Program-made: the position numbers | Part shown: one piece after another, positions 30,001-33,000 of the stretch | Layout of the letters: each line of letters begins with the position of its first letter | Numbering within the stretch: the stretch's first letter is position 1 | Assembly (NCBI RefSeq): GCF_054482525.1 | Contig: NZ_CM137006.1 | Length of the DNA: 64,000 bases | Strand: one strand, 5' to 3'

Positions 30001-33000
30001 TGAATGGTCAAACCGTAAGCCGTGATGGTGCGCGTAATCTCGGTGAAGTACGTACCGGAGTTGAGGCGAAAGTAAATCACAACCTTAGCCTGTGGGGGAA
30101 TGTCGGTGTGCAACTAGGTGATAAAGGCTATAGCGATACTCAGGGCATGCTGGGTGTGAAATATAGCTGGTAAACCGTATAAGCCGCATGTCGAAGATGC
30201 ATGCGGCTTAATATTGCCGACTTCAAACGACTTTTAAATCCTCCTTTTTATCCGCGATCGCGGATATCGCAGCGTTTATCCCGTAGAGCGGATAAGATGT
30301 GTTTCCAGATTGACTTTATCCTCACTAAAGGATAAAACTGATAATATCCCCTTGAGCGGATAAATTTGCTGTGGACGTATGACATGATGAGCTTTCAGAA
30401 GATCTATAGCCCAACGCAATTAGCGAATGCAATGAAACTGGTTCGTCAGCAAAATGGCTGGACGCAGAGCGAGCTGGCGAAAAAAATCGGCATTAAGCAG
30501 GCGACAATTTCCAATTTCGAAAACAACCCTGACAATACCACGCTGATGACATTTTTTAAGATTTTACAGTCGCTTGAACTCTCAATGACGCTATGCGACA
30601 CGAAAAATGCCTCGCCAGAATCAACAGAACAGCAAGATCTGGAGTGGTAATGCCTAAACTTGTCACTTGGATGAACAACCAGCGGGTAGGCGAGTTAACG
30701 AAGTTAGCCAATGGCGCGCACACCTTTAAGTATGCACCGGAGTGGTTAGCCAACCGTTATGCCAGACCGTTATCACTTTCGCTGCCATTGCAGAGGGGGA
30801 ATATCACCTCTGATGCCGTATTTAACTTCTTCGATAACCTGTTACCCGATAGCCCGATTGTACGTGACCGGATCGTTAAACGTTATCATGCTAAACGTTG
30901 TCCTCAATCAGATAGAGCATTTTATCGTATTGTACAGTCAGATTTTTTGATACCCGGCGAGGCTCTCGCCAGGTAAATTCTGCATCAAGGTCATCGTCTA
31001 ATGCCAGCGGCCGGTACGCGTTAAAATCATGCAAGGGTTCTTTGGCAAAGCGCCGGTTATAATCCGCCATGTATTCTTCTGCAAATGCATTGGCCGCTTC
31101 TATTGTACAGATCCCCTTAAGCCTGAGCTCCTTAACGAGTCGGTCCTGAAGTGTCAAATGAGCACGTTCAACGCGGCCTTTTGCCTGGCTGGTTTCAGCA
31201 CACAAAGGAGTAATATTAAGGCAGCGCATGGCCCTGGCAAACTGGGTATCGCCGAGACCGGTGGTGGCGTGCTTATTATTGACTCTGAATACGCTGGCTT
31301 TATCGCTGTAGAGGATCATCGGTCTACCGTATTCAGTGGTGGTCGCAGCCATCAATTTGTATCAGCTCGCCAGTACAAGGACGCCGGTAACGAGGCTGAT
31401 GAATTTTCGGTGCGCGTTGTCTGCGGGGGATCCAGAGTCCCGCGTTTATCATGAGACGTCGGATGGTTTCCTTTCCAAGGACCAGACCGTGAACTTCCTC
31501 CAGCTTTTCCCGCGCCAGCGTGGGGCCAAAATCACGGTAGTGCTCCCGGATTATACTGAGTGCCTCCAATGAGCCACAAATAGAACATTAGCATTGAGCC
31601 TCTATAATTTTGGTGCGCATAATGTGCTACACGTTATGTTGAAAAGGCCGCTGCGAAAATAGAACCCCGCAGCGGCCTCTTTAGCATAACGTCATTGTGC
31701 GAACCAATTATTTATTTTTTTGATTTTTGAGTTGCCTCAATTTCTTTTTTTAAACCATGAAGGTTTTTATGACCGGTTCCCTTTGGTTGTAACTGTCCCC
31801 TTTGTAACTTACTGATTCTATTTCCTCTTTCTGATATTACTATTTCATCATTCAGGGATTTTTCAATCAATGCATACAACGCATTGAATACTTTGATGTT
31901 TTCTGATTCCCTCAACTCTTCGAGGATTTTACTTAGTTGTAGAAAGTCATTAATTAAACTAACGCCATTTTTAGGATCGTAAAACTCCTCATGTCGTTTT
32001 AACATCTTTGCAATCTTTTTTTGCTTATCTGTTGCGTTTGACATTTTCCCTTTCCCTTCAACTAGATTTAATCATTACATTCAACCGTTGCTACGGTTCC
32101 ATAATAAGTAATGTAAAGAAAACTTCCATTATTGAACTGGCCAACAGAGGTCGATACTTTTACCCCGTAAATGACATTTCCTTGTCTACCTGCAGAATTC
32201 ACGAACGCATCATAGGCTTCCTGGTGCTCATTTCTCTTGCGCTCCATAAAACCACGAATTAAACCTTTATCAGAAATTTCAATAGGATAGGTCTTCTCAA
32301 TAAATCCATGAATCTCTACTACTTTCATATTGGAGGGCAATGTATCAGTGCTTAACACTAACATGTTGATTTCCTTTCAATTAAAGAACCTTAATGACAT
32401 TACTTAATTATTTCATTTCAATCAACAACATATGGGTTGTTTTTTATCATTCCGACACTATATCTAGGCGAGATAACTAAAATGGCTAGTTATCACTATA
32501 CCTCTAAAGGATAAAATAATGGCTGACTTCTACATAACAGCAGTAAAATATGATGAAAATCATGAACATATCGTTAAGGTTAAAACACGGCAACGAGTTG
32601 ATGGTAAGGTTAAAGCACCAAGCATCAATTCTCGCCAATTTATCGTCGAATTGATTAATACCGGAAAGGTATCATTTTGGACTGGATTACAGGATAGCGA
32701 AGGACGATGGGGAAAAGGGGCTGACGTGACCGTAACCTCTACTGGTTTCCTGACTACATCACCAAATAATACCACTCGGGATAACCTCGGCGAATTGCCT
32801 GAATTTTAACCAAAAATCAAACGTGCAGTGTAGGTAATACTGCACGTTTGTCTCATTCCTGAGACTCTACCTTTTACTGTTCATCGCCAGTGATTAATTT
32901 TCTGGTTAACATCTTTGCACTGTAGCTATATGAACTTAAAGCAGAAACCTGTCTTGCAAGTGATATGATATCTTGCTTGTCCAATGTCCTGATGTTCCAG

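Follow-up and report, generated by a model that had tools for sequence, protein, structure and literature searches.

HipBA is a type II toxin–antitoxin (TA) module in which HipB is the repressor and HipA is a Ser/Thr kinase acting on GltX. In the tripartite HipBST system the N-terminal subdomain of HipA stands alone as a separate protein, HipS, which acts as an antitoxin. In E. coli K-12, dif begins 76 bp past the hipA stop codon, and dif is where IMEX, mobile elements that use the host XerC/XerD recombinases, integrate. A group of insertion sequences (ISs) is also found beside such sites, its hallmark being a 5-bp distance from the XerC arm together with a 5-bp duplication (PMC10132070; bioRxiv 10.1101/2022.12.17.520857).

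We analyzed a 64-kb stretch of E. coli DNA (the window) in which hipB and the beginning of hipA are followed by an IS remnant and then by a prophage array. Judged on its sequence, the locus appears to be an orphan autorepressed antitoxin without its kinase toxin, a case of ordinary TA decay. We consider it highly probable that this decayed hipBA module arose through insertion of a dif-targeting IS, decay of the transposase gene, a 3205-bp deletion, and later integration of an inovirus.

The original prediction had four HipB operators and an 88-aa hipB gene intact, and a pattern search, identity to K-12 and the family model NF007271 all agree with it. The operator pattern TATCCN8GGATA has exactly four matches in the window (30249-30266, 30277-30294, 30317-30334 and 30345-30362, plus strand) where 0.11 would be expected by chance, and four or more matches were reached in none of 100 shuffles. 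The control region that they span (30249-30362) is 100% identical to that of TUM14759, a strain with intact hipBA. Direct comparison of the hipBA promoter region with K-12 showed a 1-nt insertion and a change from TATAAT to GATAAT, an allele that is also found beside the intact hipA of TUM14759; a sigma-70 consensus scan under a strict rule did not call the hipBA promoter. The complete hipB gene (30384-30650, plus strand) encodes the antitoxin and autorepressor, identical to K-12 HipB at 85 of 88 residues and matching the NCBIfam HipB equivalog NF007271 over its full length (1-88) at 182 bits (cut-off 79). In the clonal genome SCU-102 this hipB is annotated as WP_001366357.1.

The hipA gene starts normally, as also predicted, its ATG at 30650 sharing one base with the hipB TAA stop. 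K-12 HipA residues 1-82 match 30650-30895 (plus strand) with 81 of 82 residues identical (98.8%, tblastn), while residues 83-440 have no match in any frame of the whole 64-kb window; alignment to K-12 recovers only residues 1-82, and no full-length HipA is readable. This remnant is part of the N-terminal Couple_hipA subdomain. It covers positions 2-80 of 101 of TIGR03071 couple_hipA, the sole HipA-domain model matched, and maps onto residues 1-84 of HipA in the PDB. A full HipA of ~440 aa joins Couple_hipA to the C-terminal kinase domain HipA_C, and that kinase domain is absent here; the RefSeq label in SCU-102 reads 'HipA N-terminal domain-containing protein, missing C-terminus'. After codon 82 the frame continues into a foreign tail of 26 codons and a stop (30896-30976, plus strand), antisense through the transposase remnant, in keeping with the stop predicted 27 codons past the cut; the predicted product has 108 aa.

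The sequence next to hipA is a decayed IS1202-family (ISNCY) dif-targeting element (30896-31606, minus strand), identified by NF033594 and by colinearity with an intact homologue in Z142-1 that encodes a 466-aa transposase. Its two transposase fragments (30896-31333 and 31334-31565, minus strand) match NF033594 transpos_ISNCY_2 (length 368) at positions 178-331 (E = 2.8e-60) and 62-138 (E = 7e-27), and the remnant is colinear with the Z142-1 element except for internal deletions of 134 bp and 307 bp. The Z142-1 element has TGT…ACA ends, imperfect inverted repeats of ~50 bp and an ATATT duplication on both sides, and it abuts the XerC arm. In the window the outer part of the left terminal inverted repeat is retained (~31563-31606, minus strand), ending …CTCTATA, and is followed by a 5-bp spacer, ATTTT (31607-31611), which is the dif-side copy of the target-site duplication. 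The left end at 31606 sits 5 bp from the XerC arm, and the N-terminus of the transposase faces dif. Because this end reads …ATA and the right end has been deleted, only half of the TGT…ACA and duplication signature is visible. The IS is located beside dif because its family targets dif. An Rfam scan of 29500-33500 found no RNA family.

The junction between hipA and the IS (…CATGCTAAA|CGTTGTCC…, 30895/30896) was placed by blastn and by the junction sequences. It is blunt: comparison with the parent revealed no shared bases at the junction. Window positions 30101-30895 match positions 2028-2795 of a parent locus (L003), and 30896-31717 match its positions 6001-6821 at 99% identity, so that the two are colinear on either side of a single gap, with L003 2796-6000 (3205 bp) missing. 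The deletion took hipA codons 83-440 together with the DNA between hipA and dif, the right end of the IS, SIR2, and the 3'-terminal 362 bp of the transposase gene. The parental order is seen in ESBLEC_MG32: hipB, intact hipA, IS right end, SIR2, decayed transposase, dif. We reconstructed a parent query from the window-type hipB and hipA 5' part, the remainder of hipA from TUM14759, and the IS right end and SIR2 3' part from MG32; it matches 139 complete E. coli genomes at ≥80% coverage, the best match being a single piece at 99.5% identity; one of the 139, followed further, runs on into the decayed transposase and dif. The SIR2–IS island is present in 213 genomes. The passenger gene has disappeared, but in the direct ancestor it was probably SIR2, since the remnant has 99-99.7% identity to copies of the SIR2 type and both of their internal deletions are found in it as well. 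The breakpoint had been predicted to coincide with the 3' end of the transposase remnant, and transposase homology does start there, but the position does not mark a natural end of the IS; it lies within the transposase gene and became an edge through the deletion itself. A hairpin-driven deletion at the hipA breakpoint was considered and rejected, the DNA there folding no better than its shuffles (z = 0.21).

Beyond the spacer, the XerC arm at 31612, 5 bp past the IS end, bears out the placement of dif just downstream, where the prophage array begins. The site is a dif-like hybrid (attL, 31612-31645, plus strand) made of the XerC arm GGTGCGCATAA, then TGTGCTACACG, then TTATGTTGAAA, and homology to genomes with canonical dif stops at 31625, inside its central region. 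No canonical dif with up to 3 mismatches was found in the window, and separate searches for the arms yielded only hybrid sites with the XerC arm. An inovirus-like prophage array, recognized by XerC-arm repeats at 31612, 40355, 49098 and 57841, extends head-to-tail on the plus strand from 31612 to 64000 and runs off the window. Its 8743-bp unit is present as three full copies plus 6160 bp, 100% identical with 0 mismatches. The prophage replication protein belongs to phrog_702 (E = 7e-120); against a phage database the 8.7-kb unit gave only a weak match, over 6%, to gene I of Lineavirus I2-2. A 77-bp stretch of the IS interior by the right-end repeat is 91% identical to the prophage left end.

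E. coli has at least three further hipA deletion alleles of independent origin, every one of which keeps hipB. In the WP4-W18-ESBL-09 type (shared with 10 other genomes) hipA runs from nt 105 directly into the same transposase remnant at a different point, retaining 35 hipA codons. Nord122 has an in-frame 627-bp deletion internal to hipA, with a 231-aa product, and AVS0465 has an in-frame 975-bp one whose left breakpoint, nt 246, is also that of the window-type allele. The reading frame is preserved in each of the three intragenic deletions seen, those of 627 bp and 975 bp in hipA and one of 801 bp in the neighbouring SIR2 gene. From sequence comparison, toxin-first decay of hipBA appears to be recurrent in E. 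coli, having occurred several independent times; a search of the literature for hipA as a truncated gene, an orphan or a pseudogene found no papers. The two large deletions, and the two separate deletions of Nord122, had suggested a functional coupling of hipA with SIR2. Such a coupling lacks support, as several genomes pair the 231-aa hipA allele with intact SIR2.

Natural loss of HipA in E. coli might be positively selected or mechanistically favoured, with hipB and a short hipA 5' fragment kept for a function, although we think this unlikely. Hints in this direction are the existence of at least four independent deletion alleles, the nt 246 breakpoint common to two of them, the in-frame character of the three intragenic deletions, and the preservation of hipB and the operators throughout. 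Functions that we proposed for the retained pieces are anti-addiction, control of a HipB regulon and a HipS-like activity. That hipB and the HipA(1-82) peptide of the window form a selected unit in one of these roles (HipS-like, anti-addiction or HipB regulon repressor), and are not debris, is very improbable. The fragment is the Couple_hipA subdomain, which in HipBST is the separate antitoxin HipS, and it gives weak structure matches to HipS (7vkb_B, E = 0.004; 7ab3_B, E = 0.37); moreover, hipB and the hipA 5' end are kept in all four independent hipA-loss alleles, two of them with the common left breakpoint at nt 246. However, the fragment reaches over only 80 of the domain's 101 positions and is followed by 26 residues unrelated to it, the other alleles retain very different lengths (35 codons, or 231 aa in frame), and the window holds no HipT-like kinase gene. 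The deletion is also so recent, given the 100% identity to intact alleles, that selection cannot be judged.

The exact junction was found in three of 5426 complete genomes (SCU-102, PCN033 and 19KM1776), which belong to one clone. The presence of the identical junction in three independent complete genomes rules out an assembly artefact. Over the 24 kb upstream, SCU-102 and PCN033 are 100.0% identical to the window, and the next genome stands at 98.6%. We infer a single deletion event in one clone that includes the strain of the window. These sisters also bear on whether hipA has moved or been duplicated elsewhere in the genome, leaving the module functional in trans. The window covers 64 kb of the strain's genome, and hipBA-like modules occur on plasmids in other bacteria. 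We nevertheless give relocation very little credence: HipA residues 83-440 are absent from the window, and in the three sister chromosomes the hipA 3' part is likewise absent, a chimeric query with the 1077 bp of hipA 3' sequence matching one place in each and the hipB/hipA 5' part also occurring in one place only. The claim that the kinase toxin was lost holds for the window and for all three sister chromosomes, and hipA has probably been lost, not relocated, with the sister chromosomes standing proxy for its absence strain-wide.

In the same three genomes canonical dif, GGTGCGCATAATGTATATTATGTTAAAT, follows straight after the IS remnant, with no phage. The scar is only 716 bp from the dif-like attL of the tandem array, and with the 77-bp similarity this could suggest that the neighbouring prophage, or Xer recombination at dif during integration, excision or array formation, made the deletion. 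We find such an origin hard to credit, as sisters that carry the identical scar have canonical dif and no prophage, which makes the scar unrelated to the array; furthermore, no dif-like sequence lies at either end of the deletion, and the XerC arm and IS left end are untouched. A literature search on hipA, dif and filamentous prophage found nothing relevant among the papers listed.

That the IS inserted straight into hipA at codon 82, with later IS decay explaining the rest, is extremely improbable, for although transposase homology begins right at the hipA breakpoint and IS insertion commonly kills toxin genes, the junction lies within the transposase ORF (NF033594 position ~331 of 368) and 362 bp before the end of the parental transposase gene, there is no terminal inverted repeat or target duplication at 30896, the family targets positions at a 5-bp distance from XerC arms (which is the position of the opposite end here), the parent with hipA intact and nothing deleted occurs in 139-213 genomes, and no relative was seen with the IS right-end repeat (TGTCAAAGCTC…) abutting hipA nucleotide 246.

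Under the reading that we prefer, decay by IS insertion and subsequent deletion, four steps would have led to the present locus. First, an IS1202-family transporter IS with a SIR2-family passenger would have landed in the 76 bp that separate hipA from dif, leaving 5 bp between itself and the XerC arm. Second, its transposase gene would have decayed through the 134-bp and 307-bp internal deletions. Third, an illegitimate, blunt deletion of 3205 bp in the ancestor of the SCU-102/PCN033/19KM1776 clone would have fused hipA, at nucleotide 246, to the interior of the defunct transposase gene. Fourth, on the simplest reading, an inovirus would have integrated at dif in the strain of the window and become a tandem array. 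This order (IS decay before the deletion, the prophage after it) is suggested by shared and absent states in the relatives; alternatively, the sisters could have lost the prophage by Xer-mediated excision.

From what is known of HipBA, the promoter and four operators would still drive hipB and the predicted 108-aa HipA(1-82) fusion, and HipB dimers, by binding to the operators, would repress their own production. With the kinase core deleted, GltX phosphorylation and HipA-dependent growth arrest would not occur, and the strain of the window should lack HipA-dependent persistence. Loss of the toxin would be harmless and loss of the antitoxin first would not be tolerated, which makes hipB the expected survivor; the locus exemplifies how a chromosomal TA module can decay toxin first. 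Tolerance studies in the PCN033/SCU-102 clone should not presume a working hipBA. The E. coli hipA–dif gap of a few dozen bp is a landing pad for dif-targeting IS1202-family elements and Xer-dependent phages, and some of the IS1202-family elements there carry candidate defence genes. The allele is already known as an annotated pseudogene in public genomes, and current understanding is unchanged.

Several described systems can be set beside this locus. The window peptide is the same subdomain as HipS, by descent from HipA and not by membership in HipBST, in which a complete HipS of ~100 aa lies beside a HipT kinase gene; here the domain is cut short and has a foreign tail, and a transposase in antisense and a prophage follow in place of a kinase ORF. 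As in the IMEX (CTX-phi and Ypf-phi/CUS-1-type inoviruses), the array has at its start a dif-like hybrid whose XerC arm is still that of the chromosome, and its copies are head-to-tail; the array is no part of the hipA scar. The arms of dif are 6 nt apart, whereas 11 nt separate the arm-like motifs at the junction site of the window. With the IS1202 dif/xrs-targeting subgroup (the ISAjo2/ISAba32 group, and transporter ISs such as ISKpn21) the element shares a large TnsB-like transposase, a left end 5 bp from the XerC arm, a fixed orientation, and a passenger gene lying past the transposase gene on the right-end side; the TGT…ACA ends and 5-bp duplication of the subgroup are complete in the intact Z142-1 relative and half visible in the window. 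It differs in that only 711 bp are left here (the pair of transposase fragments plus the outer portion of the left repeat) with ACA changed to ATA, and in that its inverted repeats look longer, at ~50 bp in two blocks, than the 24-26 bp quoted for the Acinetobacter members. The orphan-antitoxin alleles of WP4, Nord122 and AVS0465 resemble that of the window in their lost toxin and intact hipB and operators, and differ in their endpoints. Finally, the window agrees with K-12 hipBA in its four operators, its hipB (85/88), the 1-nt overlap of hipB stop and hipA start, and a chromosomal site between a yneO-type autotransporter and dif; unlike K-12, it has no HipA 83-440, the kinase core, and the 76-bp hipA–dif spacer is replaced by the IS remnant.

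The antitoxin half of the hipBA module survives in this E. coli chromosome. A pattern search of the whole 64-kb window for the HipB operator motif TATCCN8GGATA gave exactly four matches (0.11 expected by chance), all within 30249-30362. The hipB gene follows at 30384-30650; its 88 residues match K-12 HipB at 85 positions and pass the NCBIfam HipB equivalog model with 182 bits against a cut-off of 79, so that hipB and its operators are intact, as in the original prediction. Compared with K-12, the promoter (30300-30370) has one extra nucleotide, inserted after TTGAC, and GATAAT in place of TATAAT between operators 3 and 4. 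Since strain TUM14759 carries this same allele together with an intact hipA, its promoter and operators being identical to those of the window, we take these differences to be natural polymorphism rather than decay. The ORF upstream of hipB, an autotransporter gene of the ECSE_1600 family (24753-30173, 1806 aa), is intact; yneO, the corresponding gene of K-12, is a pseudogene.

The toxin gene starts normally, its ATG at 30650 overlapping the hipB stop codon by one base, and is cut after codon 82 as had been proposed. The tblastn match to K-12 HipA covers residues 1-82 (81/82 identical) at 30650-30895, and 26 unrelated codons then lead to a stop at 30974-30976, that is, 27 codons on, as predicted. 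The sole domain match of the 108-aa product is to the N-terminal couple_hipA (positions 2-80 of 101), and the product aligned with residues 1-84 of solved HipA structures. The rest of K-12 HipA had no tblastn match in any frame of the 64-kb window. We also searched with a chimeric query, joining window 30101-31625 to the reverse complement of the 3' 1077 bp of hipA. Genomes with intact hipA gave two places and eleven genomes with a second deletion allele (described below) one place each; the three sister chromosomes of the same clone (SCU-102, PCN033 and 19KM1776) likewise gave one place each, with no second place for the hipA 3' part. The window and sister chromosomes indicate that this part was lost rather than relocated, in keeping with the predicted loss of the kinase toxin and orphaning of its antitoxin.

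Directly after the break lies an ISNCY-type transposase on the minus strand, in two fragments (30896-31606; NF033594 positions 178-331 and 62-138 of 368). In clonal genomes the RefSeq annotation of this stretch is 'ISNCY family transposase', frameshifted and doubly truncated. The outer left repeat of the insertion sequence (IS) ends at 31606, and ATTTT (31607-31611) separates it from the XerC arm GGTGCGCATAA of dif, the chromosomal XerC/XerD site, starting at 31612. An intact relative of ~2.8 kb occupies the same site in strain Z142-1 (locus L009), where it encodes a 466-aa transposase and a passenger gene, has TGT…ACA ends with imperfect terminal inverted repeats of ~50 bp in two blocks, is flanked on both sides by the 5-bp duplication ATATT, and places the end upstream of the transposase gene 5 bp from the dif XerC arm. 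These features are those published as typical of one IS1202-family subgroup, which targets dif/xrs and takes in passenger-carrying 'transporter IS' such as ISKpn21 (PMC10132070; bioRxiv 10.1101/2022.12.17.520857). The remnant adjoins hipA because the target of this family is dif, which in K-12 begins only 76 bp past the hipA stop.

Passengers of this element at the E. coli chromosomal dif differ between strains (outside the window, ESBLEC_MG32 locus 3950-6711, Z142-1 locus 4350-7161 and hit H118). One type, in 213 complete genomes, is a SIR2 protein matching the candidate defence family PDC-S25 of PADLOC (E = 2e-82), the exact protein appearing in over 16,000 collection blocks; the second is an STM4504/CBY_0614-family protein, and the third an ECs_2282-type zinc-binding protein with two hypothetical proteins.

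The loss of hipA is best explained by a single blunt deletion of 3205 bp, which joined hipA to the dead transposase gene of this IS. In ESBLEC_MG32, which has the undeleted order, hipB and an intact hipA are followed by the IS right end, 77 bp that contain a terminator, a SIR2-family gene of 450 aa, the remains of the transposase gene and a dif-like site. Window 30101-30895 is colinear with its locus L003 at 2028-2795, and 30896-31717 with 6001-6821 (99% identity), leaving one gap only, L003 2796-6000. This gap takes out hipA nucleotides 247-1323, the 77 bp between hipA and dif, the right repeat of the IS, all of SIR2, and 362 bp from the 3' end of the transposase gene. At the breakpoint the sequence reads …CATGCTAAA|CGTTGTCC…, with zero bases of microhomology between the two parental sequences. 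Insertion of the IS into hipA is rejected as the cause, there being no IS end at the junction and an undeleted parent colinear on both sides. The predicted coincidence of the breakpoint with the 3' end of the transposase remnant stands, transposase homology starting at 30896, with the mechanism sharpened to a deletion. A parent was reconstructed from window-type hipB and hipA 5' part, the hipA remainder of TUM14759 and, from ESBLEC_MG32, the right end of the IS with the 3' part of SIR2. It was matched at ≥80% coverage by 139 complete genomes, in the best case as a single piece with 99.5% identity; the SIR2-IS island occurs in 213 of 5426. The passenger lost from the window was most probably SIR2. 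Relative to Z142-1, the window remnant has internal deletions of 134 bp and 307 bp, both common to SIR2-type copies, so that the IS was most likely already dead at the time.

Other alleles show that deletions have inactivated hipA on several independent occasions. Eleven genomes, those of the WP4-W18-ESBL-09 type, have hipA broken off after nt 105 and fused to the same transposase remnant at a different position, SIR2 again being removed. Nord122 carries two separate in-frame deletions, one of 627 bp within hipA (231-aa product) and one of 801 bp in SIR2. In several assemblies a 696-bp hipA gene, whose product is equally long, stands beside an intact SIR2 gene, which argues against coupled loss of the two; this 231-aa allele is common among island-bearing assemblies (loci L008, of Nord122, and L011/L014/L017/L019). 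AVS0465 has an in-frame 975-bp hipA deletion with 1-3 nt of microhomology (L005 5062-5075) and the window's left edge, nt 246; its background is different, with tam adjoining hipB, and its deletion is independent. A hairpin behind the shared nt 246 breakpoint was not supported. The three intragenic deletions (627, 975 and 801 bp) are all multiples of three. Every one of these hipA alleles keeps hipB and its operators; toxin-first loss is the expected order of decay, since the toxin gene is freely lost and the antitoxin is indispensable for as long as the toxin is there.

Among the 5426 complete genomes, the exact junction occurs only in PCN033, SCU-102 and 19KM1776. The 24 kb upstream of hipB are 100.0% identical to SCU-102 and PCN033 (next-best genome, 98.6%). 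Homology to the sisters, 19KM1776 included, stops at 31625, inside the dif central region, where an 8743-bp inovirus-like prophage starts and runs past the window edge in three complete copies and a further 6160 bp, with no difference among them; the array was thus rightly placed in the dif neighbourhood. In SCU-102 the IS remnant is directly followed by canonical dif GGTGCGCATAATGTATATTATGTTAAAT and the usual yneL/fimbrial genes, without prophage, and in PCN033 the match continues past 31625 into dif-type bases, again as in canonical dif; dif was read at sequence level in these two. Because both carry scar and canonical dif, the array did not make the scar, and SCU-102, lacking the prophage, leads us to reject any prophage-related cause. 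The simplest reading is that the array was gained after the deletion; alternatively, the sisters may have lost a prophage by Xer-mediated excision.

The array (31612-64000) consists of head-to-tail units with 0 mismatches between copies, its right end and a functional dif lying past the window edge. Each unit encodes a replication protein (phrog_702) and a repressor-like HTH gene, with no family assigned to its left-end minus-strand ORFs. None of the 5426 complete E. coli genomes closely matches its left accessory part, and in the phage database the match covers only 6% of the unit, to Lineavirus I2-2. The junction sites at 31612-31645, 40355, 49098 and 57841 all read GGTGCGCATAA-TGTGCTACACG-TTATGTTGAAA, with 11 nt between the XerC arm and an XerD-arm-like motif, whereas dif has 6 nt between its arms; related prophages in TUM14759 and ESBLEC_MG32 have TGTGCGACTCG instead. 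The prophage right end beside the XerC arm (40333-40354, AGATTCTGCCATCCTTACCATT) resembles the K-12 chromosome left of dif (GGATTCTTCCTTGGTTTATATT). At the left end, the 77 bp that directly follow the dif-like core on its right (31635-31711) contain a strong terminator-like hairpin and are ~91% identical to the stretch just inside the IS right terminal repeat, ahead of the passenger (L003 4000-4075; L009 4400-4470), which suggests that the IS and dif-integrating phages have exchanged cargo regions.

From established HipBA biology, transcription of hipB should continue, with HipB dimers repressing their own gene, because its promoter and operators are those of TUM14759. Without HipA there would be neither co-repressor nor kinase, and hence GltX should not be phosphorylated, nor should HipA bring about growth arrest or persistence. 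In the 108-aa fusion one fifth of the couple_hipA subdomain is missing and 26 junk residues are added. Its weak similarity to HipS antitoxins reflects common descent of the domain, and nothing suggests function here. The locus is a decayed toxin-antitoxin module with an orphan antitoxin, of a well-understood kind, and public genomes already mark its allele as a pseudogene; more noteworthy than the scar are the dif-homing IS with its variable passengers and the perfect tandem inovirus array.
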